Source: Candidatus Methylomirabilia bacterium
GTDB lineage: Bacteria; Methylomirabilota; Methylomirabilia; Rokubacteriales; CSP1-6
Length of the DNA: 64,000 bases
Direction of reading: 5' to 3'
NCBI GenBank assembly: GCA_041492755.1
Contig: JBGPXN010000002.1
Location: 14,883 to 78,882 of the forward strand
Shown piece by piece: positions 44,160 to 64,000 of the stretch; the stretch's first letter is position 1; the number at the start of each line of letters is the position of its first letter. The position numbers and the translations under genes are program-made. The notes below the pieces were generated by a model. It ran no database searches. It worked only from the letters and a program-made list of their open reading frames with translations, and had not been told where the DNA came from.

Positions 44160-46736
44160 TCAGCGCTGCGCGAGGTAGGCGCTCAACGCGGCGCCTTCGC
44201 GCTCGCGGAGGGAGACGGCGATTCGGAGCTGTTCGAGGTATTGCTCGAGGGTCCTGCCCCCGAGGTGAATGTGTCGGGTGGTGAAGAAGTCGCGGACGTC
44301 GCGTTCCAGCTCGGGGGTGGCCAGGCCGGTCACGCCTTCACACATGCGCCGCAACCCGTGCTTCGGATACAGACGGTCCATCTCGGCCCAGTGCTCCTTC
44401 GCGAATCGCCAGGTCAGCTCGCGCGACGCGACGCTCATCAGTATCGTGCGCAGGACGAAGGGCGCGTCTTGCGTGCGGATCTCGCCGTTGATGGTGCGGG
44501 CGAGCGTCGCCTCCACCAGCGCGGGTGGCCGGAACGCGGCCAGGGCGTAGAGATACCGCTGTTCTTCCTGCGGCGTGCGCGCGTTGCGGAAGCGGGTGAG
44601 GAACTCGTGGTAACGGGAGGCGTCGCCCGCATGGGCCAGGGTCGCGATGAGGCTCGGCAGCACGTTGGGATCGACCGCGGTGGGATCGTGCTGAGCGCGC
44701 GCGTAGAGTCGAGCCGCTTCGGCTTGCGTGGTGGCGTCGTTGCCCAGGACGCCGAACGCGCGCAGCAGATCGCCGCGTAGCTGCCGCGTCAGCTCGTCCT
44801 CGCCGGGAGCCGGCGTCCACCCGAGGGCGGCCACCGCCGGCGCCAGCAGCCGGCGCACGAACGCCTCGAAATTCGCGCAATCTTCGGGGCGGACGATCCG
44901 GTTCACCGCGCCGAGCGACGCGACCAGGGTCGTCCACACGTTCCGATCGCGCTCGTCCACGAAGCGCGTCGTGAGGTCGAGATACTCGGTGAGCGGCGTG
45001 AGACCGCCCAGCGTGGCGGCCCAGGCGTCGTTGGCGAGGTTGAAGCGCTCGATGGGCTGCAGACCGGCCCGGCGGGCGAGCAGTCGCTCGCGCAGGTCGC
45101 GCTCGTAGCGCACCCGGTAGAAGCCATGTCCGCCCTCGTTGACCAGCGCCCACGCCAGCCCCGCCGGCGCGGGCACGCGCACCTCGTCGGTGTCGAGCAG
45201 GACCCGGCGGATCTCCTCGCCGCCGGTGCCGGCCAGCCGCAGCTGCACGGGGACGTGCCAGCGAGTCGTCGACGGTGGATCAAGCGGCGTCGCGCCCGGC
45301 AGCGGAGGTGGCGGCGCCGCCAGGAACGTGAAGCGCTGCTGGGTGAGGACCAGGTCGTTGCCGTCCCGCCGTACGCTGACGAGCGGATATCCGGGGCGGA
45401 AGATCCAGCCGTCCATGACGGCGGGGATCGGCTGGCCGGACGCCCGGCCGAGGGCCGCCCACAGGTCGCCGGTGTCGGCGTTGGCGTAGGCATGCGTGCG
45501 CAAGTATTCGCGCACGCCCTCGCGGAACACCGGCGGGCCCAGATACTGCTCGAGCATGCGGAGCACGGACGCGCCCTTCTCGTACGTCAGCACGTCGAAC
45601 ATGGCGTCGGCGTCGCGCGGCGCGCGCACGGGGAACTCGATCGGCCGCGTGTTCCAGAGACCGTCCACGGCGAAGGCGGCCGCGCGCGACACCCCGAACG
45701 TCGTCCAGCGCTGCCACTCCGGCTTCCACGCGTCGACGGCGAGCATCTCCATGAACGTCGCGAACGCTTCGTTGAGCCAGATCCCGTTCCACCAGGTCAT
45801 GGTCACGAGATCCCCGAACCACATGTGGGCGTTCTCGTGGGCCACGACGTCGGCCACCCGCTCCTGCTCGGCGTGAGTGGCGGCCGTCTCGTCCACGAGC
45901 AGCGCGGTCTCGCGGAACGTGATGGCGCCGAGGTTTTCCATGGCGCCGGCCGCGAAGTCGGGGATGGCGAGCAGGTCGAGCTTCTCGGCGGGGTACGCAA
46001 GGCCGTAGTAGTCCTCGAAGAACCGGAGCGACGCGGCGCCGATCTCGCGACCGAAGCCGGTGAGCCGAAGCTTGCCCGGCACGCACCAGACGCGCAGGGG
46101 CGCCCGACCGACCATGACCGGCTCGGTCGCCTCCAGCTCGCCGACGATGAACGCGACCAGGTACGTCGACATCCGGATCGAGTCGGCGAAGCGGATCACC
46201 TTCTTTCCGCCCTCGCGCCGCTCCTGCCGCACCGGCGTGTTGGACACCGCGGTCAGCGCCTCATCGATCACGAGTGTCGGCGCGAAGACGGCCTTGAAGT
46301 CGGGCTCGTCCCAGCACGGAAACGCGCGCCGCGCGTCGGTCGCCTCGAACTGGGTCGCCGCCAGCGCGTGGGTGGCGCCCGCGGGGTCCTTGTACGTGCT
46401 GCGGTAGAAGCCGCGCAGCTTGTCGTTGAGCGTGCCGCGGAACGTGAGCCGCAGCCGCCAGGGGCCCGGTGTCGCGGCCTGCGGGAACGTCAGCCGGGCG
46501 CGCTCGAGCGCCTCGTCCGACTCCGCGGTGCCGACGAGCCGCCCGCCCGCGTCGTTTTCGAGCACCACGCTCGTGATCGCGATCTCGGCGGCGTTGAGGA
46601 CGATCTCCCGCGTGGGCTCGTGCACGGTGACCGCCACCGTCTCCTCGCCGGCGAACGTGGACGTGACGAGATCCGGCTCCAGCCTCAAGTCATAACGCGA
46701 CGGCACGACGACGCGCGGCAACCGGTAGGGATCCAC
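44160..46736 (-). CDS. pepN: Aminopeptidase N (M1 family)
   Basis: GTG start after GGGAGG. It has the GAMENLG exopeptidase motif and the HENAHMWFGD...WLNEAFA zinc site, and is 858 aa long. Confidence 0.9.
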   Translation of the reverse strand: MDPYRLPRVVVPSRYDLRLEPDLVTSTFAGEETVAVTVHEPTREIVLNAAEIAITSVVLENDAGGRLVGTAESDEALERARLTFPQAATPGPWRLRLTFRGTLNDKLRGFYRSTYKDPAGATHALAATQFEATDARRAFPCWDEPDFKAVFAPTLVIDEALTAVSNTPVRQERREGGKKVIRFADSIRMSTYLVAFIVGELEATEPVMVGRAPLRVWCVPGKLRLTGFGREIGAASLRFFEDYYGLAYPAEKLDLLAIPDFAAGAMENLGAITFRETALLVDETAATHAEQERVADVVAHENAHMWFGDLVTMTWWNGIWLNEAFATFMEMLAVDAWKPEWQRWTTFGVSRAAAFAVDGLWNTRPIEFPVRAPRDADAMFDVLTYEKGASVLRMLEQYLGPPVFREGVREYLRTHAYANADTGDLWAALGRASGQPIPAVMDGWIFRPGYPLVSVRRDGNDLVLTQQRFTFLAAPPPPLPGATPLDPPSTTRWHVPVQLRLAGTGGEEIRRVLLDTDEVRVPAPAGLAWALVNEGGHGFYRVRYERDLRERLLARRAGLQPIERFNLANDAWAATLGGLTPLTEYLDLTTRFVDERDRNVWTTLVASLGAVNRIVRPEDCANFEAFVRRLLAPAVAALGWTPAPGEDELTRQLRGDLLRAFGVLGNDATTQAEAARLYARAQHDPTAVDPNVLPSLIATLAHAGDASRYHEFLTRFRNARTPQEEQRYLYALAAFRPPALVEATLARTINGEIRTQDAPFVLRTILMSVASRELTWRFAKEHWAEMDRLYPKHGLRRMCEGVTGLATPELERDVRDFFTTRHIHLGGRTLEQYLEQLRIAVSLREREGAALSAYLAQR

Positions 46737-46820
46737 CTGAACCTCCCGAAGGATGGCAGTCTCCGTACTCTATCAGGCTGCCCGCGCCGTTTCCCCGCCT
46801 AGTTGCGCGGAGGAAGCCGA

Positions 46821-47642
46821 CTACGTTCGGCCAAGCGCGCCCAGTCCGGCGACGAAGCCGGTGAGCATGTCCCAGCCGGAGGAATGGCCGATGCGCGTGA
46901 GCCGGCGGGCGGCGTCGAGGATCTCCTCGCGCGGCCGCGCGCCCGCGGCCCGCCCGGCGAGATCGTGCAGGGGGGCGTGGCCTTCGCCATCGAGCAGGTC
47001 ACCCAGGAGCGCGGCGCTGATGGGATGCGTGCGCGCCGGCGCGCGCCGGCGGATCTCGTTCGCCGCCCGTCGCCAGTCATCGGCGTCGCGATGCTCGAGC
47101 CGGTCGACGACGGCGCGCGCGAAGAAGGCGCCGCCGACGAAATCGTCCCCGGCGGGCGTGAGGCCGGGCCCGAGACCGAGCAGCGGCGCCGCGGCGCGCC
47201 CGGCGGCGTGGGCGTCGTCGCTCGCGCACGCACGGGCCAGCGCCATCGCCGCCGGCACCGCGCTCTCGAGCGGGAAGGCGGGGACGCGTCCGAGGAGCAA
47301 CGCGCCGAGGCCGTCGGGGACGCCGACCTCGGCCGCGGCCCTCGACAGATCACGCGCGGCCGCACGGAGCGCCGCCGCCGCGTCCGAGCCGTCGGGCAGC
47401 GCCGGCGCGCGCCAGCGCCGGGCGGCGTGCAGCGTGAGGCGCGGACGGTCGCCGGCCGGAAGCGGGTCGGCGGTCAGCATCGCGCGCGGATGCAGCGACG
47501 AGCCGGGCGGGCCGAGCCAGACGATCTCACCGTCGATGGTGAGATACACGGACGCCGAGAGCGCGGCGAGCACATGAACGGAACCGGGCGCGCGTTCAAC
47601 CGCGCGTTCTGCTCGCCACCCGACGTCGCTGACCACGATCAC
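46821..47642 (-). CDS. Hypothetical protein, DUF2877-like
   Basis: 273-aa ORF with a GTG start. The GLGPGLTPAGDDFVGG motif resembles the DUF2877 / AllH-like family as I remember it. The assignment is weak. Confidence 0.4.
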   Translation of the reverse strand: MIVVSDVGWRAERAVERAPGSVHVLAALSASVYLTIDGEIVWLGPPGSSLHPRAMLTADPLPAGDRPRLTLHAARRWRAPALPDGSDAAAALRAAARDLSRAAAEVGVPDGLGALLLGRVPAFPLESAVPAAMALARACASDDAHAAGRAAAPLLGLGPGLTPAGDDFVGGAFFARAVVDRLEHRDADDWRRAANEIRRRAPARTHPISAALLGDLLDGEGHAPLHDLAGRAAGARPREEILDAARRLTRIGHSSGWDMLTGFVAGLGALGRT

Positions 47643-47668
47643 GTCGGGCGTCTGCTAAGGTACGCGGG

Positions 47669-48877
47669 ATGCTCCGCCGTCTGCGCGACGCGGCCGGGCT
47701 CGTGCTGCTGCTCCTGGGCGCGGCGGGCGCGACCGGCGGCGACTCCGTCACCGAGTTCCTCGGCCGCCACTGGCGACGTCCCCTCGCGCCGCAAGGCGAT
47801 GCGCCGGCACGCTTCAGTCCGGTGGAGGCCTCGCTGCATCCCGAAGCGTGCGGCACCTGCCATCCCATCCAGCTCGCCGACTGGCGCACGAGCCTGCACG
47901 CGGCGTCGATGGGACCGGGCGTGGCCGGGCAGATCGTCGAAATGCTCGCGACCGATCCCGCCAGTGCGCTCGGCTGCCTCGGCTGCCATGCGCCACTCGC
48001 CGAGCAAGCGCCGCTGGCGGGCCGCATCGACGCGCTCGTCGACAACCCGGTGCACGACCGCGCGCTCGGCGGCAAGGGCGTGGTCTGCGCCGCCTGCCAC
48101 GTGCGCGAGCACGAACGCTTCGGTCCGCCGCGCCGCGACGGCAGCCTGACCGCCCGCGCGCCGCGCGACACCCTGCCGCACGCCGGGGTGACGCGAACCC
48201 CCGCGTTCCTGGCCTCGGGGTTTTGCCGCTCGTGCCACCAGTTCCAGCCCGACGGCCTGGCCCTGAACGGCAAGTTGCTGGAGGACACCTACGACGAATG
48301 GCAGGCGAGTCGCTTCGCGCGCTCGAACGTGCACTGCCAGGACTGCCACATGCCGGACCGCCGGCACCTGTGGCGCGGCATCCACGACCGCGACATGGTC
48401 CGTGGCGGCGTCACCATCACGCCGCGGGTCCGAATGGAGCGGCCGGGCCCGGCCCGGCTGGTGAACGTCTCGCTCACCCTGCGGAACACGCGGGTCGGCC
48501 ACGCCTTTCCGACGTACATTCCGCCCCGGGTCGTCATGCGCGTGGAGCTGCGCGATGCGGCCGGGGTTCCGGTGCCGGGCGGCGTCGAGGAATACACGAT
48601 CGGCCGCGACGTGTCGCTCGACATGGCGCAGGAGCTGAGCGACACGCGGGTTCAGCCCGGGCAGACGGCGACGGTGCATCTCCGCCGGCAGGTGGATCAG
48701 CGCGGCTCGATCGTTCGCGCCACCGTGACCGTGTACCCGGACGCCTTCTACACGCGCTTCTTCGAGACGTTGCTGGAGCAAGGCGCCGGGCGTGGCGAAC
48801 CGCTGATCCGCCGGGCGCTGGAGGCCACCCGGCGCTCGTCGTTCACGATTTACGAGCAGGAGTGGCCCGTGCGCTGA
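47669..48877 (+). CDS. Secreted pentaheme c-type cytochrome
   Basis: Signal-like N-terminus and five CxxCH motifs (CGTCH, CLGCH, CAACH, CRSCH, CQDCH). Confidence 0.8.
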   Translation: MLRRLRDAAGLVLLLLGAAGATGGDSVTEFLGRHWRRPLAPQGDAPARFSPVEASLHPEACGTCHPIQLADWRTSLHAASMGPGVAGQIVEMLATDPASALGCLGCHAPLAEQAPLAGRIDALVDNPVHDRALGGKGVVCAACHVREHERFGPPRRDGSLTARAPRDTLPHAGVTRTPAFLASGFCRSCHQFQPDGLALNGKLLEDTYDEWQASRFARSNVHCQDCHMPDRRHLWRGIHDRDMVRGGVTITPRVRMERPGPARLVNVSLTLRNTRVGHAFPTYIPPRVVMRVELRDAAGVPVPGGVEEYTIGRDVSLDMAQELSDTRVQPGQTATVHLRRQVDQRGSIVRATVTVYPDAFYTRFFETLLEQGAGRGEPLIRRALEATRRSSFTIYEQEWPVR

Positions 48878-48906
48878 TCCCGAGTGCGACGCGGCCGGCC
48901 CGCCGG

Positions 48907-49692
48907 TCACGCCGACGTGAGCACGGCGCGCCCATCGTCGTCGCGCTCGTGCGAGGCGACGCGGAGCCCGGCCGCGGCTGCTTCGCGCTCGAGCTCGCCC
49001 ACCTGAAACTGATGCTCGTAGTGGATGGAGCGCCAGTCGTCGCCGGCCCAGATCTTGTCGCCGGGCTCCGGTCGCCAGTCCGCGCCGCACACCGACGCGG
49101 CCAGCGCGGTCAGCCGGCGGGGGAGCGTGCGCTCGGGCCCGTCCGTGGCCACGTAACTGAGGAGGATGCGGCCGCCCGGCGCGAGCACGGCACGAAGTCG
49201 GGCGAGCGTGGCCGTGCGCAGCGCGAGCGAGGGGATGTACGAATAGGCGTACCAGGAGAAGACGATCGCGTCGTACGGCCCGCGGAGCGGCGCCGTCTCC
49301 ACCGCGCCCGTGATGACCTCCGCGCTGAGCCCGAGCTTCACGAGCATCGCGCGCGCCCGGGCGGCGCTCGCCGGCACGAGCTCGAGCCCGTCGACGCGGT
49401 AACCGAGGCGGAGCAGCGCGATCAGATCGCGTCCGGTCCCGCATCCGACGAGCAGCGCGTGATCCTCGGGCCGCAGCTGGCCGGGATACCACCTCTTCTC
49501 CCAGTCCATGAGTCCGGAGAGGATCTGCGCCTCGTTGCCGGCGTGGCCGTCCCAGCGCGCTGCCACCGCCGCGCTCAGCTCGCTACGCGGAAGCGTGCCC
49601 GCGGCCAGGCACACCACGGCGCGCGCACCGCGATCGAGGACGCGCCCGGCGACCTGGAGCGTGACGAACGCGGCCCGCCGCATGATCGCCAT
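48907..49692 (-). CDS. Class I SAM-dependent methyltransferase
   Basis: ATG 49692 lies 5 nt after the GGT stop. It has motif I LLVGCGTGRDL and the post-I/II pattern YDAIVFSW, PGGRILL. Confidence 0.7.
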   Translation of the reverse strand: MAIMRRAAFVTLQVAGRVLDRGARAVVCLAAGTLPRSELSAAVAARWDGHAGNEAQILSGLMDWEKRWYPGQLRPEDHALLVGCGTGRDLIALLRLGYRVDGLELVPASAARARAMLVKLGLSAEVITGAVETAPLRGPYDAIVFSWYAYSYIPSLALRTATLARLRAVLAPGGRILLSYVATDGPERTLPRRLTALAASVCGADWRPEPGDKIWAGDDWRSIHYEHQFQVGELEREAAAAGLRVASHERDDDGRAVLTSA

Positions 49693-49697
49693 CGAGC

Positions 49698-51329
49698 CTA
49701 CCGGCCGAGCGCGGCGCCGTCGGCGCGCGGGTCCGAGCCGCCGCGCAGGCCGTCGGCGTCGATCGCGATCACGTGGGCGTGACCCATGAGGTCGCTCCAC
49801 TCCTCCACCACGCGCACCTCGTGACCACGGGCGCGCAACCCGTCCACCACTTCGGCGCCGAAGCGCGCCTCGATCTTCAGGTCGCGCGAGGCCGCTCCCC
49901 ACGTCCGGCCCCACAGCCAGCGCGGCGCCTCCACCGCGGCTTGCGGGCCGAGGCCGCGGTCGACGATCCGCGTCACCAGCGCGGCCTGCGTCTGGGGCTG
50001 GCCTTCGCCGCCCATGGTGCCGTAGACCAGCCGCGGCCGGCCGCCGACGAGATACATCGACGGGATCAGCGTGTGCGCCGTCTGCTTGCGCGGAGCGAGC
50101 GCGTTGGGATGCGCGGGATCGAGCGAGAAGAAGGCGCCTCGGTTTTGCAGCAGGACGCCGGTGTCGCCCGCGATCACGCCGGAGCCGAACTCGTGATAGA
50201 GGCTCTGGATGACCGCGACCGCGTTGCCGGCGGCGTCCGCGGTCACGATCGCGATCGTGTCGTCGCCGGCCGCTCGCCCCGCGCCCTCGGGCGTGGCGGC
50301 GCGGCGTCTGGAGATGCGTTCGCGCCGTCGGGCCAGGCGCGCGAGATCCAGGCACCGGTCCACCGGGACCGGTACGACCGTGGGGTCGGCCAGATAGCGA
50401 TCGCGGTCCTCGAACGCGACCTTGGTGGCTTCCACCAGCACGTGCACGTATTCCGTCTCGTCCAATCCGGCGATATCGAAGCCCTCGAGCAGCGCAAGGA
50501 TCGCCAGCGCGGCGAAGCCCTGCGTCGGCGGCGGAAAGCTCACGGCTTCGCCGCGGCGGTACGGCACGCGCAGCGCGTCGACCCACTCCGCGCGATGCGC
50601 GGAGAAGTCTTCGGCCCGAAGCGGGCTCCCCAGCGCTTCCGCGGCGGCCGTGATGCGGCGGGCGAGCGCGCCGCGATAGAACTCGTCGGCCCCGCCCTCG
50701 GCGATTGCCGCCAGGGTCCGGCCGAGATCGGCCTGTACGAACCGCTCGGTGTTCAGGCGGTGGGGGTGATAGCCGGGCCAGAGCGTCTTGCGAACCTCGT
50801 CGGGCGCGCCGTCGGAGAACAGGTCGTGTGCAGCGGCGGTGACCCGCCGCTGGCCTGGAGACGGCGCGATTCCTTCGCGCGCGTGGACGATGGCGTGTTC
50901 GAGGAGGGTGCGCCAGCCCAGCGGCGAGCCGAGCCGCGTACGGCTGTACTCATGAACGGCCCACCAGCCGGACACCGCGCCGGGGACGGTGAGAGCGGCG
51001 GCGCCGCCCCGGACCGGAATGGTCATACCGAACCGGGTACGGTACTCGGCCAGTTCGGCGGCCCGCGCCGAGCGCCCGGCGGCGTTGAGCCCGGCGACGG
51101 TGCGGCGGTGGGAGTCGTAAACGAGCCAAAAGCTGTCGCCCCCGATGCCTGTCATGTGGGGGTACACCACTGCGATGGTTGCGGCGGTGGCCACGGCGGC
51201 ATCCGCGGCGGTACCGCCAGCGGCCAGGGCGGCGAGCCCAGCTTCCGAGGCGAGCCGGTGCGGCGAGGCCACCATGCCAAGGTTTGCGCGGGTTTCCGGC
51301 CAGCGGGTGGGGGTCGGCACGGCGCCCAT
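49698..51329 (-). CDS. ggt: Gamma-glutamyltransferase family protein
   Basis: MVASPHRLASEAGLAALAAGGTAADAAVA...HMTGIGGDSFWLVY, the GDDTIAIVTAD autoprocessing Thr region and TMGGEGQPQT. ATG 51329 is preferred over TTG 51395. Confidence 0.85.
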   Translation of the reverse strand: MGAVPTPTRWPETRANLGMVASPHRLASEAGLAALAAGGTAADAAVATAATIAVVYPHMTGIGGDSFWLVYDSHRRTVAGLNAAGRSARAAELAEYRTRFGMTIPVRGGAAALTVPGAVSGWWAVHEYSRTRLGSPLGWRTLLEHAIVHAREGIAPSPGQRRVTAAAHDLFSDGAPDEVRKTLWPGYHPHRLNTERFVQADLGRTLAAIAEGGADEFYRGALARRITAAAEALGSPLRAEDFSAHRAEWVDALRVPYRRGEAVSFPPPTQGFAALAILALLEGFDIAGLDETEYVHVLVEATKVAFEDRDRYLADPTVVPVPVDRCLDLARLARRRERISRRRAATPEGAGRAAGDDTIAIVTADAAGNAVAVIQSLYHEFGSGVIAGDTGVLLQNRGAFFSLDPAHPNALAPRKQTAHTLIPSMYLVGGRPRLVYGTMGGEGQPQTQAALVTRIVDRGLGPQAAVEAPRWLWGRTWGAASRDLKIEARFGAEVVDGLRARGHEVRVVEEWSDLMGHAHVIAIDADGLRGGSDPRADGAALGR

Positions 51330-51599
51330 CTTACTCGCTTGCCGAGCCACTGTGGCCGCGCCGATGTCAGCGTGGCTAACGCACGGCGTTCCCAATCCGG
51401 CGTCGAGCGTCCGCCTTAACGTGTTGTGAAACCGTTACATATCCGGCGGCGCTGGCGAGCCCGGGGGGGAGTAGACAAAGAGTTGCAGGGCGAGTAGGCA
51501 CGAACTTTCACACCGGATGCTACGATGACCCTACGTTGAACAGGACGGCGGCGCGAATGTAGTAGGGGCGCCCATTTAGGAAGCGACGCACATTTACCA

Positions 51600-54500
51600 A
51601 TGAACAGGAATGGTGCTCTCGTGACCCGACCGAATCTCATGAACGGCGTCCGGGGCTTGCTGCTCGGCCTCGTCGCCCTCGGGACCAGCTACCTGGCCGC
51701 CGGCTCGGCCGATGCCGCGGTCCTCAAGCGCGTCCACACCGGTGTCCGGAACGTCCCGAGCGCAACGGCCGTCACGGTGGTCTTGGATCTACCCGACGCG
51801 TCCAAAGCCTTCGTCGTGTGCTATCCCCGCAGCAGCACCACGAGCTCGCACCAGCGCGTGACCTGCGTCCTCGGCGACAACCTGCTCACGATCGACGGCG
51901 GGACGAACGTCGGCGCCAACGTCACCGTCTCCTTCTACGTCGCCGAGTTCGATTCCGGAGTGTTCGTCCGGCGCGGCACCTCGAGCTTCGCCGCCGCGGG
52001 GACGACGCCGACCGCGGCCCCATCGTTCAGCGCGGTGGACTGCACGTCCAGCTTCATCGTCTGGGGTGGCGAGCAGACGAATGCCTCCGCGAGCAACAAC
52101 AACGACGAAGAGTTCACCTTCCGCGCGATCCTGGGCACGGTCGCTTCGCCCTGCACCAGCGGGACGACCAGCACGCTGTCGATCGATCGACTCGACGGCG
52201 CGACGGCGGCCACCGTGGCCTGGCAGATCGTCACCATGGACAGCGCGGTGGTGCAGCGGAACGTGGCGAGTCTCGCCAATAACGCGACCACCACCACCGC
52301 TGCCATCACCTCGGTCGACACGACCAAGTCGTTCGCGCAGATCACCCGGACCGGCGGCACCGCGATCGCCGGCGTCGAGAACCTGTACCTGACGCGGGTG
52401 ACCTTCTCGGCCGCCAACCAGCTCACGTTCACGCGGGGCGCGCAGACGGGCGCCGCCAACACGGGGGTGAGCATCGCGTGGGAGGTCGTGTCGTTCTTCG
52501 ACGGTACGACCGTGACGTCCGGGACGACCACCGGCACGGGCACCCACACCCAGATGAGCACGGCGCTGTCAGGGGTCAGCACGGGACGGGCCGTGCCGTT
52601 GTACGCGCAGTCGACCGCCGTCGCGGGCAACAACATCTGGTCGGCCGCGGCCTGGTCGGTGCAGGTGGTGAGCAACCCGAGTTTACAGATCCTGTTCACG
52701 CGCGGCGCCAGCAGCAACAGCGTCGTGTCGGCGAGCTGGTACGTCGTGTCCTTCAACCGTTGCACCAACGATCCGCTCTGCCAGGTCGGCGCCAATGCCG
52801 GCTCGGGTCAGGTGCGGCTGGCCACCACGACTTACACTGACCCCGGGTGCCCCGTGTTCGGCTGCGGGTACCTGGTGCTGCGCCGGACGGCCTCGATCAC
52901 CGACGCGCCGGTGAATGGCACGCAGTACGCGGTAGGGGGCACGATCGGGAGCTCGACGGTCGTCTACAACGCGCACCAGACGAGCAACACCAACGCGAAC
53001 GCCGCCAATGCGACCAGCTTGACGGTCGGGTCGACGACCGGCTTCCCGTCGTCCTGCAACAGCAACTGCCGCGCATACGTCTTCGACGCGACCACGCTGG
53101 CCGTCGACGAGTTCACGTATACCGGCACCACGGCGACGACCTTCACGGGCATCCCGAACTCGGGCGCGCTGGCCATGCTGGCCCACCCCGTCGGCTCCAT
53201 CGTCCGCGCGTATCCGGGCAGCCAATCGAGCGGGAACATCACGATGCCGCAGACGACGACGTCCGCCGCGCTCGGCTTGACCAGCACGACGGGGGCGATC
53301 ACCGTGGCGTCCACCACGATCACCGTCGCGTCCACGACGAACTTCGCCTCGTCGGGGACCGCCTTCATCAACAAGACCGACGCGTTCACGTACACGGGGA
53401 CGACGGCGACGTCGTTCACCGGCGTGTCGGGGATCGACGCGTCCTACGCCGCCGGCGCTGGCATCAACGCCTTCGGCACGACGATCACCGTGGCCTCGAC
53501 GGCCAACTTCCCGTCGGCGGGTACCGCCTACGTCAGCGCCAGCGATTCGTTCACCTACACGGGGACCACCGCCACGTCGTTCACCGGAGTTCAGGGCGTG
53601 AGCGCCTCCTACACGTCCGGGGTGGCCATCACCGCGGAGGGCTTCCGGGAGACCGGCCTCAGCAACGGGACGACCTACTTCTACAAGGTGTTCCCGAAGA
53701 CCGGGAGCAGCACGTACGTGACGACGCTGACGAACGCGCAGAGCCAGGTGACCGCGGTCCCCGACGCGGGCCAGACGACGTGGAGCTTCGCGACGACGTC
53801 GGGCTCGACCATGAACTTCCCGGTCGCGGGGAACACCGGCATCTTCGTGTCCGCGAACAACACGACGATCACGACGCTCAACCCGGCCGACGGGACGCAG
53901 ATGGCGCAAGCGAACACGGAGGGGGCGGTCCAGAGCTACGTGACGTGGGGCGTCGACAGCGGCGGCGCGGGCGAAAGCGTCACCGGCGCGGACTCGGTCG
54001 GCATGATCTACCAGCTCGACGCCAGCACCGGGGACCCGCGGTGGTCGACCGCCTTCCCGAATCTCCAGGCCGGAGACTACATCCAGGCCGGCATCTCCGC
54101 CCAGGTCCTCGACTACTCGGACGCGACGTTCCAGGGCCAGTTCTCGACGGACGTGCTCTTCGTCGGCACCACGGGCGACGGCACGAACACGACCAACCAT
54201 GCGGTGGCGGCGTTTCGCGCTGACACCGGCGCGCTGCTGTGGGAGTTCCGGCCGAACCCCACGGGAGTCGGCGCGCCCATGGGCGAGGTGATCGGCCAGC
54301 CGTGGGTCGACTATGAGCGCAACCGGCTCTACGTCACCACCCGCAATGGCGTGTTCGGCGGTCAGAACGGCCTGTGGGTGCTGCGCACGGTCCAGGAAGG
54401 CGCGAACGCCGCGGGCACGCTCGTCACCTCGTTCGGCACCGTCGGTGATTCCCAGATCCCCCCCACGGCCAGCTACAACGGCCAGGTCCTCTACCTCGCC

Positions 54501-55013
54501 GACGTGCCGGATCAGAGCGCAGGCTTCACGGCGGGCACGCTGCACGCGTTCAACCTGAATGGCGGAACGCCGGCTCAGAAATGGGCGGGCGGTATGGCCA
54601 TCCAGAGCCCGCTCGGTTACCCGAAGGGCCTGGTCTGGGAGGACTTCGGCGTGAACCCCGGGGGCGAGCGACGGCTGTACGTCGTGACCGACGACAATGC
54701 CCGGGACGGGATCCGCTGCATCCAGGACGATGGCGCGAGCGGCTCGCCGTGCTGGCATCGGCCGCATCCGGCGTCGGGCGGGCGATTCCGGAGCATGGTC
54801 ATCGGCGACGATGCTCTCTACGTGGGGAGCTCCGATGGCCGTCTCTACCAGATCGACTACGTGACGGGGAGCATCGTGACGTGCTACGCGGTCTCCGGCA
54901 GTCCCGACCTTGGCGACGCCAGCACCTCGGATGGTCAGCAGATCTTCCTCGGGAGCGCGGGCGGGCGCGTGTACCGTATCGAGCTTCCGCTCCCGGTGGT
55001 GAGCTGCCCATGA
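51600..55013 (+). CDS. Giant secreted protein: Thr/Ser-rich N-region, triple FTYTGTTATSFTG repeat, C-terminal PQQ/BamB-like beta-propeller
   Basis: Signal (GLLLGLVALGTSYLAAGSADA). There are three ~45-aa repeats at ~53010..53640. The C-terminal propeller blades include RLYVTTRNG, QVLYLADV, RLYVVTDD, ALYVGSSDGRLYQID and IFLGSAGGRVYRI. The stop overlaps the next start (ATGA 55010..55013). Confidence 0.75.
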   Translation: MNRNGALVTRPNLMNGVRGLLLGLVALGTSYLAAGSADAAVLKRVHTGVRNVPSATAVTVVLDLPDASKAFVVCYPRSSTTSSHQRVTCVLGDNLLTIDGGTNVGANVTVSFYVAEFDSGVFVRRGTSSFAAAGTTPTAAPSFSAVDCTSSFIVWGGEQTNASASNNNDEEFTFRAILGTVASPCTSGTTSTLSIDRLDGATAATVAWQIVTMDSAVVQRNVASLANNATTTTAAITSVDTTKSFAQITRTGGTAIAGVENLYLTRVTFSAANQLTFTRGAQTGAANTGVSIAWEVVSFFDGTTVTSGTTTGTGTHTQMSTALSGVSTGRAVPLYAQSTAVAGNNIWSAAAWSVQVVSNPSLQILFTRGASSNSVVSASWYVVSFNRCTNDPLCQVGANAGSGQVRLATTTYTDPGCPVFGCGYLVLRRTASITDAPVNGTQYAVGGTIGSSTVVYNAHQTSNTNANAANATSLTVGSTTGFPSSCNSNCRAYVFDATTLAVDEFTYTGTTATTFTGIPNSGALAMLAHPVGSIVRAYPGSQSSGNITMPQTTTSAALGLTSTTGAITVASTTITVASTTNFASSGTAFINKTDAFTYTGTTATSFTGVSGIDASYAAGAGINAFGTTITVASTANFPSAGTAYVSASDSFTYTGTTATSFTGVQGVSASYTSGVAITAEGFRETGLSNGTTYFYKVFPKTGSSTYVTTLTNAQSQVTAVPDAGQTTWSFATTSGSTMNFPVAGNTGIFVSANNTTITTLNPADGTQMAQANTEGAVQSYVTWGVDSGGAGESVTGADSVGMIYQLDASTGDPRWSTAFPNLQAGDYIQAGISAQVLDYSDATFQGQFSTDVLFVGTTGDGTNTTNHAVAAFRADTGALLWEFRPNPTGVGAPMGEVIGQPWVDYERNRLYVTTRNGVFGGQNGLWVLRTVQEGANAAGTLVTSFGTVGDSQIPPTASYNGQVLYLADVPDQSAGFTAGTLHAFNLNGGTPAQKWAGGMAIQSPLGYPKGLVWEDFGVNPGGERRLYVVTDDNARDGIRCIQDDGASGSPCWHRPHPASGGRFRSMVIGDDALYVGSSDGRLYQIDYVTGSIVTCYAVSGSPDLGDASTSDGQQIFLGSAGGRVYRIELPLPVVSCP

Positions 55014-55480
55014 CCAGACGCGCGCTGACCGGAGCACTGGCCGCCCTCGCCCTCCTCGTGGTCTCGGCGACGCCCCCCGCGCAGGCGAAGAACGGATGCC
55101 GAGGCGACCACGAGCGGATCGAGCACCATCGTGGGGACCCCCGCGCGCGGATCACGTTCATCGGGATGACGCGCGACGGCCACCCGCACCACGGCGACCA
55201 CTTCCATGGACGCTCGGTGGCGGTGGTGCGGATCATCGTCGACTGGCGCCGACTCGGCACGCCGGGCACGCAACGACTCGACGTCTTCACGCCCAACGGC
55301 GACCTGTACCGGAGCTTCACCGCCACCGCGACCGACGACGCCGTGGTGGAGACACGGCTGCCCGTCGCCGGGACCTGGATCACCCAGCACTCCATGTTCG
55401 GCGCGTGGTGCGCCGAGGTGTCGTTGGTGGGCGAAGAGGGGCCGGTCGCGCGGGACGGCTTCGTCCTGGCTCCACGCTGA
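55010..55480 (+). CDS. Small secreted His-rich hypothetical protein
   Basis: Signal MTRRALTGALAALALLVVSATPPAQA, then HERIEHHRGD...HPHHGDHFHG and a beta-rich domain. It is translationally coupled on both sides. Confidence 0.55.
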   Translation: MTRRALTGALAALALLVVSATPPAQAKNGCRGDHERIEHHRGDPRARITFIGMTRDGHPHHGDHFHGRSVAVVRIIVDWRRLGTPGTQRLDVFTPNGDLYRSFTATATDDAVVETRLPVAGTWITQHSMFGAWCAEVSLVGEEGPVARDGFVLAPR

Positions 55481-55929
55481 GTCTCCCCCCCGCGCTCGCC
55501 GCCGACCTCGCCGGTCACCTGCTGCGCCGCGGCGACACGGTGACGATCCGCGCGCGCGGCGCGAGCATGCTGCCGTTCCTGCGCGACGGTGATCTCGTGC
55601 GAATCGTTCCCCGACCGGTCGGCGCCGTCCTGACGGGTGACGTTGTGTGCTACGCTGCCGCGAATGCGTTGTTCCTCCACCGCGTCGTCGATCGACCGGG
55701 TCACTTCGTGGTCAAGGGCGATGCCGTGACGTTCGCGGACGTGGTCCCGGCCGCCGAGGTACTCGGGCTGGTGACGGCGGTGGAACGCCACGGCCGCGTC
55801 CGGCGGATGGACACGCGGGCCGCGCGCCTGCGAAACCGCGTGATCGCCTCGTTGTCTCCGCTGCTCTCCGCCGTCGTTCCTGCCGGTGTGGCCATCGTGC
55901 GGCGCCTCCTCCGGCGAGGCGGTGCATGA
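55477..55929 (+). CDS. S24/S26 (SipW-like signal peptidase) family peptidase
   Basis: GASMLPFLRDGDLVRI (catalytic Ser-Met), GDVVCY, LFLHRVV, VKGDA. The start is uncertain: there is no ATG/GTG upstream of the conserved N-region, so it is either CTG 55477 overlapping the previous TGA (CTGA) or GTG 55540. Confidence 0.6.
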   Translation: MSLPPALAADLAGHLLRRGDTVTIRARGASMLPFLRDGDLVRIVPRPVGAVLTGDVVCYAAANALFLHRVVDRPGHFVVKGDAVTFADVVPAAEVLGLVTAVERHGRVRRMDTRAARLRNRVIASLSPLLSAVVPAGVAIVRRLLRRGGA

Positions 55930-56723
55930 GCGGTTCGGCGCGCGAAGTGCGCATCGAGATCGGTGGTCTTCGCGCGGCTCTCGAAACCGAGGGCGGTGAG
56001 CTCACGGCGCTGGCCGAGCGACGGTACGCGGGGTTTCTCTCGCGGGCGCGTCCCGACTGGCGCTTCCGCGTCGGCCGGCGGGAGCACGGTCTGGTGCCGC
56101 TCGCCGACGTGGTCGTCCGTCAGCCCCACGGAACTGGGCGGATCGAGCTCGAACGGCACGACTTTCTCGCGACACTGGACGTCCGCCGTCGCGTCGGCGA
56201 CGTCGCTCTGGGCGAGATGGACGAGATCGCGCTGGACGCCTTCTTGCGGGTCGCCTACTCCATCGCGTTGCTCGATGCCGGTGCGCTGTTGCTGCACGCC
56301 TCGAGCGTGGCGCGGGATGGCCGCGGCTACGTCTTCCCGGGGCGCTCCGGCAGCGGCAAGACGACGGTAACGCGACTGTCGCCCGGCGCCACCCTGCTGA
56401 GCGACGAGCTGTCGATCGTCGGGCGCGAGGGTCGCTGTTACGGCACACCGTTCTGGGGTGAGCTCGCCAGGGCTGGGGAGAACCGCTCGGTCCCGGCCGC
56501 CGGGCTCTATCTTCTGCGCCAGGCGGATCACCATGCCGCCACGCCGCTTCGCGCGCCGCAGGCGCTGGCCGCGCTATTGCCGAACGTCGTCTTCTTCGCC
56601 CGCGACCCCGGGCTGGTCGCGCGAGTCTTCGACGTCGCGGCCGACGTGGTCGAGCGCGTGCCATGCTTCGACCTCGCGTTCCGGCGGGATCCGGGGTTCT
56701 GGGACGTCATCCAGCGTGACTGA
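55926..56723 (+). CDS. HPr-kinase-related protein (HprK-related kinase A/B type)
   Basis: ATGA overlap with the upstream stop. LLLHASSVARDGRGYVFPGRSGSGKTTV is the HprK-like P-loop block, and FWGEL follows downstream. Confidence 0.7.
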   Translation: MSGSAREVRIEIGGLRAALETEGGELTALAERRYAGFLSRARPDWRFRVGRREHGLVPLADVVVRQPHGTGRIELERHDFLATLDVRRRVGDVALGEMDEIALDAFLRVAYSIALLDAGALLLHASSVARDGRGYVFPGRSGSGKTTVTRLSPGATLLSDELSIVGREGRCYGTPFWGELARAGENRSVPAAGLYLLRQADHHAATPLRAPQALAALLPNVVFFARDPGLVARVFDVAADVVERVPCFDLAFRRDPGFWDVIQRD

Positions 56724-57006
56724 GCACTACCCGACGCAGAATCCCCGGGCGGCGTGGCGAGTCTACGAGGGCGAAGCCGTCATCGTGTCACCCGAGGACA
56801 GCCGGTTCCACACGCTGAATGCCGTCGGCACCTTGATCTGGGAAGCCGCCGACGGGCGCACACCGCTCGGGGCGATCGTGACTCGGATCTGCGCGGAGTA
56901 CGCCGTCGAACCGGACGCCGCCGTAAGCGACGCGAGCGCGTTCGTGTCCGCGCTCTGTGCCCGTGGGCTGATGGAGCTCCGCGAGACCCCGGCCGAGACG
57001 GGGTGA
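56716..57006 (+). CDS. PqqD-family protein (RiPP recognition element)
   Basis: GTG 56716 overlaps the kinase end by 8 nt. AVIVSPEDSRFHTLNAVGTLIWEAADGRTPLGAIVTRICAEYAVEPDAAVSDASAFVSALCARGLM is the canonical PqqD pattern. Confidence 0.8.
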   Translation: MTEHYPTQNPRAAWRVYEGEAVIVSPEDSRFHTLNAVGTLIWEAADGRTPLGAIVTRICAEYAVEPDAAVSDASAFVSALCARGLMELRETPAETG

Positions 57007-57016
57007 GGAGGTCGCG

Positions 57017-57175
57017 ATGGATGCCAATGGCGAACGTCGTGGCGAGGGCGATGGCCGGAAGCCCTACGAGCCACCCCAGATCGTGAGCGAGGACATCTTC
57101 GAGACGACCGCTCTGGCGTGCGGCAAGAAGCCGATGCAGGGCGGCAACTGCGCGGCCCGCGCGAAGGCCTCCTGA
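57017..57175 (+). CDS. Candidate RiPP precursor peptide (52 aa), not in the supplied ORF track
   Basis: GAGGAGGtcgcgATG. The translation is MDANGERRGEGDGRKPYEPPQIVSEDIFETTALACGKKPMQGGNCAARAKAS. It has a YxxPxI leader motif, two Cys and a C-terminal Ser, and its stop lies 1 nt before the radical SAM start. Confidence 0.6.
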   Translation: MDANGERRGEGDGRKPYEPPQIVSEDIFETTALACGKKPMQGGNCAARAKAS

Positions 57176-57176
57176 C

Positions 57177-58286
57177 GTGTCCGCTCTCGCCGAGCGCGTG
57201 GCCGACCTCAGCATGGCGCGACGGATCCCGCTGTCCGTCCACGTCGATCTCACCATGCGCTGCAACGAGACGTGCGTGCACTGCTACCGCGTCATCGAGC
57301 GCCGCGACGAGCTCACCACGGCCGAAGTCACCGCGCTGCTCCACGAGCTGGCCCGGGCGGGCACGCTCTATCTCACGTTCAGCGGGGGTGAGGTTTTTCT
57401 GCGGCGCGACCTGTTCGAGCTCATCGAGGTCGCCAAGCGGCTGCGCTTCGACCTTCGGCTCAAGACCAACGCGCTGCTCGTCACGCGGGAGCGGGCGGAG
57501 CGCCTCCGCGCGCTCGGCGTCCGGCAGGTGGACATCAGCATCTACAGCGCCGATCCGGCCGTGCACGATCAGGTCACCCGCGTCCCCGGCTCGCTCGCCC
57601 GGTCGCTGCAGGGCGTCCAGCATCTGACGGCGGCCGGGCTCCGAGTTCGCCTCAACTGTCCGTTGATGGCCCATACGGCGGCCACCTACCGGGACGTGCG
57701 CGCCCTGGCGGAACGGCTCGGCGTCACGTGCGGCTTCGATCCCATGATCACCGCCCGCAACGACGGCGATCGCCGGACGGTCGGCCTGCGCATCCGGCCC
57801 GCTGAGCTGCGTCGGGTGCTTCAGGACCCGGTGCTGAATCCGCCGGCACCCTCCGGGACGAAGCCGCCCGCCGCCGACCCAGCCCCGCCGGCCGGCGCGC
57901 GCGCCGACCTCGACGACATCGCGTGCGGCGCCGGCCACAACGCCTGTTACGTGAGTGCCTACGGAGACGTCATGCCCTGCGTGGCCATGCCGATCGCCTG
58001 CGGCAGCATTCGGGACGCGTCGTTCATGGAGATCTGGTCACGCTCGCCGAAGATGCAGGAGGTCCGAGCCGTCCGGATCCGTCACCTGCATACCTGCGCC
58101 ACCTGCGAGGTCGCCTCGTTCTGTTCACGCTGCCCCGGCCAGGCCCTGGTCGAGGACGGCGACCTCTACGGACCCTCGACGGCTGCCTGTGAACACGCCG
58201 CCGTCGCCGCGGGACTTGCTGGCATTGCCGCGGTCCCGGCCTCGTGGCGAGGGCGAGACGGTCTGCCCTCCCGCATCGCGCCGTAA
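57177..58286 (+). CDS. Radical SAM / SPASM-domain peptide-modifying enzyme
   Basis: GTG start. It has the CNETCVHC (CxxxCxxC) cluster motif, the FSGGEVFL SAM-binding block and the C-terminal SPASM cysteines (CGAGHNACYVSAYGDVMPC, CATCEVASFCSRCPG). Confidence 0.85.
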   Translation: MSALAERVADLSMARRIPLSVHVDLTMRCNETCVHCYRVIERRDELTTAEVTALLHELARAGTLYLTFSGGEVFLRRDLFELIEVAKRLRFDLRLKTNALLVTRERAERLRALGVRQVDISIYSADPAVHDQVTRVPGSLARSLQGVQHLTAAGLRVRLNCPLMAHTAATYRDVRALAERLGVTCGFDPMITARNDGDRRTVGLRIRPAELRRVLQDPVLNPPAPSGTKPPAADPAPPAGARADLDDIACGAGHNACYVSAYGDVMPCVAMPIACGSIRDASFMEIWSRSPKMQEVRAVRIRHLHTCATCEVASFCSRCPGQALVEDGDLYGPSTAACEHAAVAAGLAGIAAVPASWRGRDGLPSRIAP

Positions 58287-63158: not shown

Positions 63159-64000
63159 ATGCCGTTAGGGCCTTTCCGCGCCGTTGACCAGTGGTTGACC
63201 CGCTGCCTGCACGACGCCGGCCGCGGGATTCCGGCTCCCGGCGGCCCGGCGCCCGATGACTGGAGCGCCGTGCTGGCGACCGCGGAGCGCCACGGCCTCG
63301 GCGCGGCGCTCGGCTGGGCCGTCCGCGCACGCGGTGACGTGCCGGCCGCCGTCCGTGCAGCAGGCGAACGTCATCTCGCGCACGGCGCGGCGCGCCACCT
63401 CCTCATGACCAACGGGCTCGTGCAGGTCCTGCGCGCGTGCGCCGCCGACGGAATCCCGGTGATACCGCTGAAGGGCCCGGCGCTCGCCGAGGCGCTCTAT
63501 CCCCATCCGGGCATGCGTCCCTGCAACGACGTCGACATCCTCGTGCGTCCCGCCGACGTGCGTCGCGCGGACGCCGCCTTGCGGCGCCTCGGATACGCGT
63601 CGTACGACGACGCGCATTCCTGGGACTTCGACCTCGCGTACGACCACGCGACGCTGTACGAGCGCACCGACGGCGTGCGCCTGGACCTGCACTGGCGCCT
63701 GCTCAACGATCCGCGCTACACCGGCGACGTCGACGCCGGCATCTGGGACCGCGCCACCGAGCAGGAGATCGCCGGCCTCCGGGCCCGCGTCCTCGGCCGG
63801 GAGGACGTGCTCCTCTATCTGGCTGTGCACCTCGCCGTGCACCACGCCCTGGACGGTCTGGTCTGGTACTGGGACCTCGCGCTCCTCGTCGACCGCTGGC
63901 GCCCGGAGATCGACTGGCAGGCCGTGGTGACGCGCGCGCTCGCCGGCCACGTCCGACGCGCGCTCTTCCACGCGCTCGCCGGTCTGCACGCCACGTTCGG
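63159..64000 (+). CDS. Nucleotidyltransferase family protein (pfam14907/NTP_transf_5-like), 3' end outside window
   Basis: ATG 63159 opens a frame with no stop to base 64000, which is probably why it is absent from the ORF track. My own translation gives IPVIPLKGPALAEALYPHPGMRPCNDVDILVRPADVRRADAALRRLGY...LDLHWRL...LLYLAVHLAVHH. The listed 63165..63989 minus ORF is its antisense shadow. Confidence 0.7.
   Translation, partial: MPLGPFRAVDQWLTRCLHDAGRGIPAPGGPAPDDWSAVLATAERHGLGAALGWAVRARGDVPAAVRAAGERHLAHGAARHLLMTNGLVQVLRACAADGIPVIPLKGPALAEALYPHPGMRPCNDVDILVRPADVRRADAALRRLGYASYDDAHSWDFDLAYDHATLYERTDGVRLDLHWRLLNDPRYTGDVDAGIWDRATEQEIAGLRARVLGREDVLLYLAVHLAVHHALDGLVWYWDLALLVDRWRPEIDWQAVVTRALAGHVRRALFHALAGLHATF

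Follow-up and report, generated by a model that had tools for sequence, protein, structure and literature searches.

A probable radical SAM-containing sister of the linear polyphosphorylated peptide pathway in a Methylomirabilia contig

Linear polyphosphorylated peptides (LPPs) were recently described in Bacillota (Popov et al., Nat Commun, May 2026; PMC13381572) as products of loci that code for LppA, LppS (a SipW-like signal peptidase I, SpI), LppB (a discrete recognition element, RRE, for RiPPs, peptides made by ribosomes and modified after translation), LppK (HprK-like), LppN (an uncharacterised NTP transferase), LppD and an MsbA-like pump. In these systems the leader follows the consensus YxxPxVLxHQxIxFETxxS, LppK polyphosphorylates Ser3 of the core, and LppS, with the catalytic residues S29, H68 and D93, cuts after F-3/E-2/T-1 and requires LppB to do so (PMC13381572). 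The same study gives the final product and its function as unknown, states that LPPs are restricted to Bacillota, and nowhere mentions a radical S-adenosylmethionine (SAM) enzyme; cluster 3 of its sequence similarity network (SSN) holds non-Bacillota SpI proteins with co-localised RREs, which were not analysed there (PMC13381572). Related enzymes act on lasso peptides, where HprK-type kinases phosphorylate a conserved C-terminal Ser of the precursor (PMC9266682) and PsmN adds a hexose to the resulting phosphate (PMC6993621). Here we analyse a stretch of 64,000 nucleotides (hereafter the window) of contig JBGPXN010000002.1 from Candidatus Methylomirabilia bacterium, in which a chain of closely packed genes, judging from its sequence and that of its relatives, is probably a ribosomal-peptide maturation pathway and a radical SAM-containing sister of the LPP pathway.

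The original prediction, made from the letters of the window, had read five consecutive genes, coding for a SipW-like peptidase, an HprK-like kinase, a PqqD protein, a short Cys-containing precursor and a radical SAM/SPASM enzyme, as one tightly packed maturation operon (coordinates are collected in Table 1). All of the junctions that it listed can be read directly from the sequence. The in-frame CTG at 55477 is overlapped by the TGA stop (55478-55480) of a 156-residue open reading frame (ORF), giving CTGA at 55477-55480; the peptidase stop and the kinase start overlap as ATGA at 55926-55929; the PqqD gene begins with a GTG at 56716, 8 nt inside the kinase ORF, whose stop is at 56721-56723; the 10-nt spacer GGAGGTCGCG lies between the PqqD stop (57004-57006) and the precursor ATG at 57017; and a single base parts the precursor stop (57173-57175) from the GTG of the radical SAM gene at 57177. 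The unit of five genes stands, but it belongs to something larger. A further ATGA at 55010-55013 is shared by the 156-residue ORF (55010-55480; P160) and a 1137-residue ORF upstream of it (51600-55013; BIG), so that the coupled chain comprises seven genes rather than five, and an NTP_transf_5 gene starts with the ATG at 63159, 5 kb downstream of the five genes. Such packing is not a matter of chance, because the same junction geometry recurs in ~45 related loci: the kinase and PqqD genes overlap by 8 nt almost everywhere, the spacer between PqqD and peptide genes is ~10 nt with a GGAGG-type site, and the gap between the peptide and radical SAM genes is 1-10 nt. In L002 (11079-11339), a type A locus that is typical in other respects, ~260 nt are inserted between PqqD and the precursor gene. 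Promoter and terminator scans of the window DNA, which is ~70% GC, gave nothing useful.

The 52-residue product of the short ORF carries Cys35 and Cys45, 10 residues apart, and ends in Ser52, 7 residues past Cys45; the leader has a variable N-terminus and then reads K15-P-Y17-E-P-P20-Q-I22-V-S-E25-D-I-F28-E29-T30. Close relatives share the pattern (K/R)PYExPxIVSExIFETTALAC(G/A)K...C......S-stop, and Y17xxP20, FET, C35, K37, C45 and S52 are invariant in their alignment. The conserved block is exactly 38 residues long in 67 of the 68 unique close sequences, with a Cys-Cys spacing of 10 and a 7-residue tail ending in Ser. At the nucleotide level, several codons are in use for the invariant residues and six for the invariant Ser, and the median pairwise ratio of nonsynonymous to synonymous substitution rates (dN/dS) is ~0.30. 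These patterns show the 52-residue ORF to be genuine, conserved and subject to purifying selection, and they support its reading as the precursor.

How common such precursors appear depends strongly on how they are sought. A word-index search returned only 13 called homologs, a motif search of metagenome contig DNA with I[FY]ET[TL]ALAC gave 434 stretches, of which 415 encode relatives, and an exhaustive search with a profile hidden Markov model (HMM) delimited a superfamily of 649 representative clusters at 50% identity (E<=1e-3). The residue statistics that follow are taken from 150 of these 649 clusters, 148 of which could be parsed. The C-terminal residue is Ser in 142 of the 150 and Thr in seven (140 and seven of the 148 parsed members), and it is the sole conserved hydroxyl in the core. 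Counted from the YxxP Tyr through the end of the FET-type motif, the leader spans exactly 14 residues in 148/148 parsed sequences, all of whose cores contain two or three Cys. The first Cys stands at core position 5 (xALxCGK) in 144, Lys at position 7 in 133 and Leu at position +3 in 141 of them; the window sequence at this point is T31-A32-L33. Two orphan copies of the precursor (L039, 9001-9123, and L040, 1515-1637; ...RPYEPPRIVSEQIFETTALACAKRPAEGGKCNLRAKSS) have no maturation genes within the available flanks. In an acidobacterial locus (L014, 6702-7501), three precursor genes follow the radical SAM gene in tandem; each product ends in ...C-x6-S, and the cores differ.

The enzymes accompany the peptide faithfully. 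Among 15 loci with 3 kb or more between the peptide gene and either end of the contig, radical SAM/SPASM, PqqD and ScmC-like kinase genes are present in 15/15 each and the S24/S26-like peptidase in 14/15, which bears out the suggestion that the families belong together; NTP_transf_5 is found in 11/15, and BIG and P160 in 10/15 each. This gene set has been kept through three gene orders and occurs in Acidobacteriota, Omnitrophota and low-GC lineages. Type A, the order of the window and its soil relatives, is BIG, P160, S24, ScmC, PqqD, peptide, radical SAM and NTP_transf_5. Type B, in Acidobacteriota, runs NTP_transf_5 ... ScmC, PqqD, radical SAM, peptide, (BIG, P160), S24, and type C (L105) runs peptide, S24, ScmC, PqqD, radical SAM, NTP_transf_5. 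Distant cassettes with recognisably related precursors were found in Acidobacteriota (L014), in Omnitrophota (L016, 39% GC) and in a further locus of 44% GC (L106), and the closest relatives of the window come from soil and rhizosphere metagenomes.

The resemblance to LPP systems extends over most of the enzymes. The LPP domain table lists PqqD, NTP_transf_5, TIGR02228, TIGR02203 and TIGR04249 (PMC13381572), and the window proteins match the same models, the MsbA model excepted. Both systems combine a SipW-like SpI peptidase, with its Ser/His/Asp triad at nearly identical positions, with a discrete PqqD RRE, an ScmC/HprK-like kinase, an NTP_transf_5 protein and a leader of the YxxP...FET type. 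In BLASTP, the window peptidase reaches 9e-13 with an LppS homolog from Bacillota and 9e-19 with the acidobacterial SpI protein OFV81495, one SpI protein of SSN cluster 3 is 40% identical to it, and the window PqqD protein matches a Bacillota LppB homolog at 5e-11.

The peptidase assignment rests on three boxes, GxSMxP, HR[VI] and KGDA, which are invariant across 33 homologs. We read GxSMxP, HR and KGD as the boxes that hold the Ser, His and Asp of S26 enzymes of the SipW/Sec11 type, and this assignment, which predicts Ser30 (55564-55566), His68 (55678-55680) and Asp82 (55720-55722) as the catalytic residues, is consistent with the published LppS catalytic mutants. General models recognise the protein only below their cut-offs (TIGR02228, archaeal-type signal peptidase I, 5.4e-9 and 36 bits against 51.85; Pfam Peptidase_S24, 9e-4). 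Automatic gene calls place its start at ATG 55567, which deletes the catalytic Ser, while protein conservation reaches ~20 residues further upstream. In-frame candidates are CTG 55477, which overlaps the P160 stop, and GTG 55405/55408. The non-canonical CTG 55477 is our unproven candidate; with it the protein has 150 residues with Ser30 and His68, as compared with 151 residues, S29 and H68 in LppS. In three relatives (L002, L046, L053), no ATG, GTG or TTG precedes the conserved block, a finding that suggests initiation at CTG or coupling by termination and reinitiation. The peptidases of L064, L105 and L106, which have a canonical ATG, begin 23-33 residues before GxSM.

Apart from its Pfam match (2.9e-17), which upholds the earlier assignment, the PqqD protein matches NCBIfam ScmD at 2.9e-10 and lasso_PqqD_Bac, below the cut-off, at 1.4e-9. 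In nature, the RRE is at times joined in frame to the precursor (L006, 10785-11231; L007, 5497-5943; proteins P0213 and P0192), and in P0213 the fused leader has WxxP in place of YxxP.

For the kinase, the best NCBIfam matches are HprK_rel_A (3.2e-10) and ScmC (TIGR04249, 6e-10), both below cut-offs, and a precomputed Pfam label, PF27840 ScmC, is attached to all 120 listed of its 381 homologs. A profile search against PDB sequences returned only P-loop-level matches, so that a comparison of folds was needed. The AlphaFold model (pLDDT 90.2) matches ATP-dependent phosphoenolpyruvate carboxykinase (PEPCK; Foldseek E 1.9e-9, TM ~0.5) and HPr kinase/phosphorylase (E ~1e-3), and the modelled fold places the protein in the PEPCK/HprK P-loop phosphotransferase superfamily. 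In the homolog alignment the invariant residues include H124, the Walker A motif GxSGxGK(T) (G139-T147, 56340-56366), D160 and E161, and the HprK-like assignment of the original prediction is well founded. Among the matches listed from a profile search of the contigs with the kinase alignment, there were distant relatives only. The NTP_transf_5 protein is 51% identical to the product of the gene directly after radical SAM in L002, and in most relatives the gene likewise follows radical SAM directly.

The two systems also differ in several ways. The window system has a radical SAM/SPASM enzyme in its invariant core, whereas the LPP product is linear, and the window cassette is without an MsbA-type exporter. 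Two residues fewer separate YxxP from FET in the window leader, and Leu occupies core position +3, where LPPs have the phospho-acceptor Ser. The predicted core is ~22 residues long, with Cys at positions 5 and ~15 and Ser or Thr at the end; the four LPP cores that we examined have 37-46 residues, are Cys-free and rich in Gly, Asn and Pro, and end in Lys or Phe. The window-type system is found in soil lineages of high GC, in Acidobacteriota, in Omnitrophota and elsewhere and is linked to secreted propeller proteins, whereas LPP systems are linked to capsule loci and are stated to be confined to Bacillota. A Chloroflexia locus (L013, 8901-9092) has an LPP-like, Cys-free precursor (KPYNKPGIIHDLVLET, followed by RAGSP...) right after an ScmC-like gene, and tblastn found no radical SAM gene in its 16.8 kb; it indicates that LPP-type systems exist outside Bacillota.

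The identification of the radical SAM enzyme as such had been correct (Table 1). It carries CxxxCxxC at C29/C33/C36 (57261-57284) and nine Cys in its C-terminal domain. Among solved structures, the thioether-forming SkfB is nearest to it in sequence (4e-13). We consider thioether formation the most likely chemistry since Cys content tracks the enzyme: the 148 parsed cores of the radical SAM type have two or three Cys, and there is none in the four published LPP cores or in the L013 precursor, which come from loci without the enzyme. An LPP-type pathway in which the radical SAM enzyme catalyses a reaction different from thioether formation at Cys is unlikely, yet it deserves to be weighed. The enzyme could form a C-C or C-O cross-link with Lys37, epimerise a residue, oxidise Cys in the manner of anSME, or act on the C-terminal Ser or a phosphoglycan. 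The observation that no curated NCBIfam family reaches its cut-off, that the best scores go to the non-thioether SPASM families AhbD, NirJ2, MftC and GeoRSP and to ScmE rather than to a curated sactipeptide or ranthipeptide family, that PqqE is also among the PDB sequence matches, and that core Lys7 is nearly as conserved as the Cys would fit such chemistry. However, the heme-pathway matches chiefly cover the generic N-terminal radical SAM core (stretches 23-184), the best solved relative is a thioether synthase, the correlation between Cys content and enzyme is strict, and a constant distance between the Cys, with a tail of constant length, suggests that the topology is a defined one, bicyclic or hairpin.

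Taken as a radical SAM-containing sister of the LPP pathway, the locus would work as follows. The 52-residue precursor would be translated from its own GGAGG site, and the discrete PqqD RRE would bind its leader through Y17-x-x-P20, by homology to the LppB-LppA crystal structure. The radical SAM/SPASM enzyme may modify the core at Cys35 and Cys45, most likely by intramolecular thioether cross-links, and the ScmC/HprK-like kinase may phosphorylate, possibly polyphosphorylate, Ser52. This residue is favored as the acceptor because the Ser+3 of LPPs is replaced by an invariant Leu, because no other hydroxyl in the core is conserved, and because the lasso kinases follow a C-terminal Ser rule. NTP_transf_5 may decorate the phosphate, much as PsmN adds a hexose, and the SipW-like peptidase, to which the RRE would present the substrate, would by homology to LppS cut after F28-E29-T30 and release a 22-residue core. 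The invariant A32-L-A34 could serve as an alternative cleavage point; regarded at first as an AxA signal-peptidase site, it was downgraded to this role in view of the LppS cleavage after F-3/E-2/T-1.

Several points weigh against this scheme. The reaction type of the radical SAM enzyme is not readable from its sequence, and the SkfB match is modest. The phospho-acceptor is assigned by exclusion, and LPPs use Ser+3 instead of a C-terminal Ser. The kinase has D160-E161 at what is probably the Asp-Asp position of the lasso kinases. In the window, NTP_transf_5 is parted from the radical SAM gene by a 4.7-kb gene, and it is missing from four of the 15 well-flanked loci. In the window, as in several relatives, the peptidase gene lacks a canonical start codon upstream of the catalytic Ser. 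Finally, neither the cassette genes nor the conserved neighbours include an ABC transporter, in the window or in L002-L007, though BIG and P160 are secreted.

This last point touches on another idea, in which the modified peptide would not be a free secondary metabolite but would serve BIG and P160: a 22-mer, cross-linked by the radical SAM enzyme and phosphorylated or phosphoglycosylated at its C-terminus, might act as a cofactor or its precursor, as a covalently attached prosthetic group or as a cross-linked small subunit. There are two precedents. PqqA, PqqD and PqqE serve periplasmic propeller quinoproteins, for which the cofactor is pyrroloquinoline quinone (PQQ), and the gamma subunit of quinohemoprotein amine dehydrogenase (QHNDH) is a Cys peptide cross-linked by a radical SAM/SPASM enzyme, with a dedicated protease and a propeller subunit. 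It would be tempting to place the window system beside these, since the BIG-P160-peptidase block remains adjacent to the cassette across two gene orders that differ by rearrangement and in different phyla, divergent cassettes are bordered by other large secreted proteins of the propeller or Ig-repeat kind (an FG-GAP protein in L108 and a 713-residue secreted protein in L105), the cassette holds neither an exporter nor an immunity gene, and the core is rigid in length and spacing and strongly conserved, a pattern met more typically in precursors of cofactors or subunits than in diversifying antibiotics. We nevertheless regard this role as improbable. BIG and P160 are lacking in five of the 15 well-flanked loci and in several full cassettes (L003, L095, L096, L056, L076, L067), the large flanking proteins of L105 and L108 are not homologous to BIG, the propeller match of BIG is generic and the fold match of P160 weak, and the peptide is without a signal sequence or an evident export route. 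If the idea were true, it would mean a new PQQ- or QHNDH-type system across soil Acidobacteriota and other uncultured lineages.

Other known pathways fit less well than the LPP pathway. The original prediction had noted that a kinase together with PqqD is otherwise known from phosphorylated lasso-peptide clusters. The paeninodin and pseudomycoidin systems (PadeK, ThcoK, PsmK, PsmN) do share with the window an HprK-family kinase, a PqqD-type RRE for leaders with (Y/W)xxP, an NTP_transf_5-type enzyme and a precursor whose C-terminal Ser is strictly conserved, whereas the window system uses an S26-type serine peptidase and a radical SAM/SPASM enzyme; the statement was too narrow in that the same pair is also at the core of the bioinformatically defined SynChlorMet (SCM) cassette. 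No lasso cyclase or B2 protease was found among the large window ORFs scanned, the small ORFs not being exhaustively scanned, in agreement with the earlier claim, and their Pfam families are absent from the called genes within 10 kb in L002-L007 and L105-L108. A lasso-peptide cluster was rejected on the lack of both in the cassettes examined. Sactipeptide and ranthipeptide systems (SkfB, AlbA, PapB) have in common with the locus a radical SAM/SPASM enzyme, an RRE and a Cys-containing core, and differ in that the window RRE is a separate protein and that a kinase, an NTP-transferase and an S26 peptidase are added; membership in their curated maturase families was rejected, as no model reaches its cut-off (AlbA 58 bits against 850, the SkfB model 64 against 300, StsB 97 against 625). 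The PQQ and mycofactocin pathways were likewise set aside, with PqqE (92.7 bits against 381) and MftC (108.7 against 265) below cut-offs and a precursor that has neither the ExxxY of PqqA nor the C-terminal GVY of MftA.

The SCM cassette (TIGR04248-TIGR04251) resembles the locus in joining an ScmC-family protein, a PqqD homolog and a radical SAM/SPASM enzyme without a characterised product, and it differs in having two radical SAM genes where the window has one and in that a precursor, a leader peptidase and an NTP transferase have been identified in the window. That the locus is itself a member is very improbable: the best or near-best NCBIfam matches of its proteins are ScmC and ScmD and PF27840 is the precomputed label, but ScmC, ScmD, ScmE and ScmF score 38.9, 40.2, 95.3 and 66.3 bits against equivalog cut-offs of 125, 100, 400 and 400, and membership was rejected for the window as well as for the distant relatives L008, L014 and L016, which fail too. 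The ScmC model also matches LPP kinases from loci without radical SAM and therefore marks the kinase superfamily rather than the SCM cassette.

As far as the searchable literature goes, the five-gene set with a radical SAM enzyme has no characterised product, as had been claimed; the claim does not hold for the module of peptidase, RRE, HprK-like kinase and NTP-transferase, which defines the LPP family. Literature searches on SynChlorMet, on HPr kinase with radical SAM and PqqD, and on PF14907 found nothing relevant. Judging from the sequence searches, the radical SAM-containing variant of the LPP pathway is new and very widespread. The locus has the LPP chassis of leader, RRE, SpI peptidase, kinase and NTP-transferase outside Bacillota, joined there to a radical SAM/SPASM enzyme and a class of Cys-containing, Ser-ending precursors that, numbering in public data at least 649 clusters (50% identity), amounts to a large untouched RiPP family. 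The chemistry of the pathway would combine thioether-type cross-linking with phosphorylation or polyphosphorylation, and possibly phosphoglycosylation. It would also offer a natural comparison of one RRE/leader system that has recruited different enzyme sets. The rigid core, together with the association with secreted propeller proteins, hints that the role is physiological and not that of an antibiotic.

Table 1. Features of the maturation locus and its neighbours, in window coordinates.
Feature	Position	Strand	Remarks
BIG, secreted protein, 1137 aa	51600..55013	+	Signal peptide, Thr/Ser/Gly-rich repeat region, C-terminal PQQ-like beta-propeller
P160, secreted protein, 156 aa	55010..55480	+	Beta-sandwich; always paired with BIG, peptidase gene next
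SpI-like (S26B, SipW/Sec11-type) Ser-His-Asp peptidase, LppS homolog	55477..55929	+	150 aa if CTG 55477 is the start
ScmC-family HprK/PEPCK-fold P-loop kinase (LppK / lasso PadeK analogue), 265 aa	55926..56723	+	
Discrete PqqD-type RRE (LppB / lasso B1 analogue), 96 aa	56716..57006	+	
Spacer GGAGGTCGCG	57007..57016	+	Shine-Dalgarno sequence for the precursor gene, read from sequence
Precursor leader, residues 1-30	57017..57106	+	YxxP RRE-binding motif, FET peptidase motif
Predicted 22-residue core TALACGKKPMQGGNCAARAKAS and stop codon	57107..57175	+	FET-site prediction
Radical SAM/SPASM peptide maturase, 369 aa	57177..58286	+	Pfam Radical_SAM 2.8e-21, SPASM 5.6e-12
MBG/He_PIG/Ig-repeat surface protein, 1550 aa	58460..63112	+	Highly charged C-terminal tail; MBG_3 3.8e-34, He_PIG 5.3e-17
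NTP_transf_5 (PF14907) nucleotidyltransferase-like protein (LppN / PsmN analogue)	63159..64000, cut by window end	+	Pfam 4.5e-58

BIG and P160 are an accessory, frequently co-conserved part of the system. In gene orders of types A and B, BIG lies directly upstream of P160 and the peptidase gene, and the order of this block is kept. The only PDB sequence matches of BIG are designer propellers, and Pfam Beta-prop_ACSF4 (1.1e-8) falls below its cut-off; the similarity of the propeller is generic, and a PQQ-dependent dehydrogenase was set aside for this reason. Three near-identical 'FTYTGTTATSFTG' repeat units precede the propeller in the N-terminal half (51600-53500). P160 matches no Pfam or NCBIfam model. 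Its AlphaFold model has a pLDDT of 78, exceeding 85 across the sandwich, and the best fold matches are weak and generic (a Wzt carbohydrate-binding domain, E 3e-4 and TM 0.40, and RhoGDI/PDE6delta-type sandwiches); a function drawn from the Wzt match was dropped because a TM of 0.40 is too weak. Residues 34-68 of P160 (55109-55213) form a His-rich insert (HERIEHHRGD...DGHPHHGDHFHG), present in the closest homologs and not in distant ones, which may be a metal-binding segment.

Downstream, the 1550-residue surface protein probably lies outside the core system, since in most relatives NTP_transf_5 directly follows radical SAM. After the radical SAM gene, L006 and L007 have genes for a 1909-residue protein, an S8 peptidase and a PAP2/vanadium-haloperoxidase-like protein. 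The low-GC cassette of L106 (4782-10220) also has genes for a PRMT-like methyltransferase and, in divergent orientation, for an ABC-2 transporter, and its precursor ends in Thr.

Upstream on the minus strand (44166-51395), the window carries a block of an M1 aminopeptidase, an AllH-like protein, a methyltransferase and a gamma-glutamyltranspeptidase (GGT), which is syntenic upstream of all type A cassettes. A GGT homolog with 38-39% identity lies ~4-6 kb upstream of acidobacterial type B cassettes. This neighbourhood, observed in the window and in L009 (870-2636), L011 and L012, could reflect synteny within lineages or a functional link.

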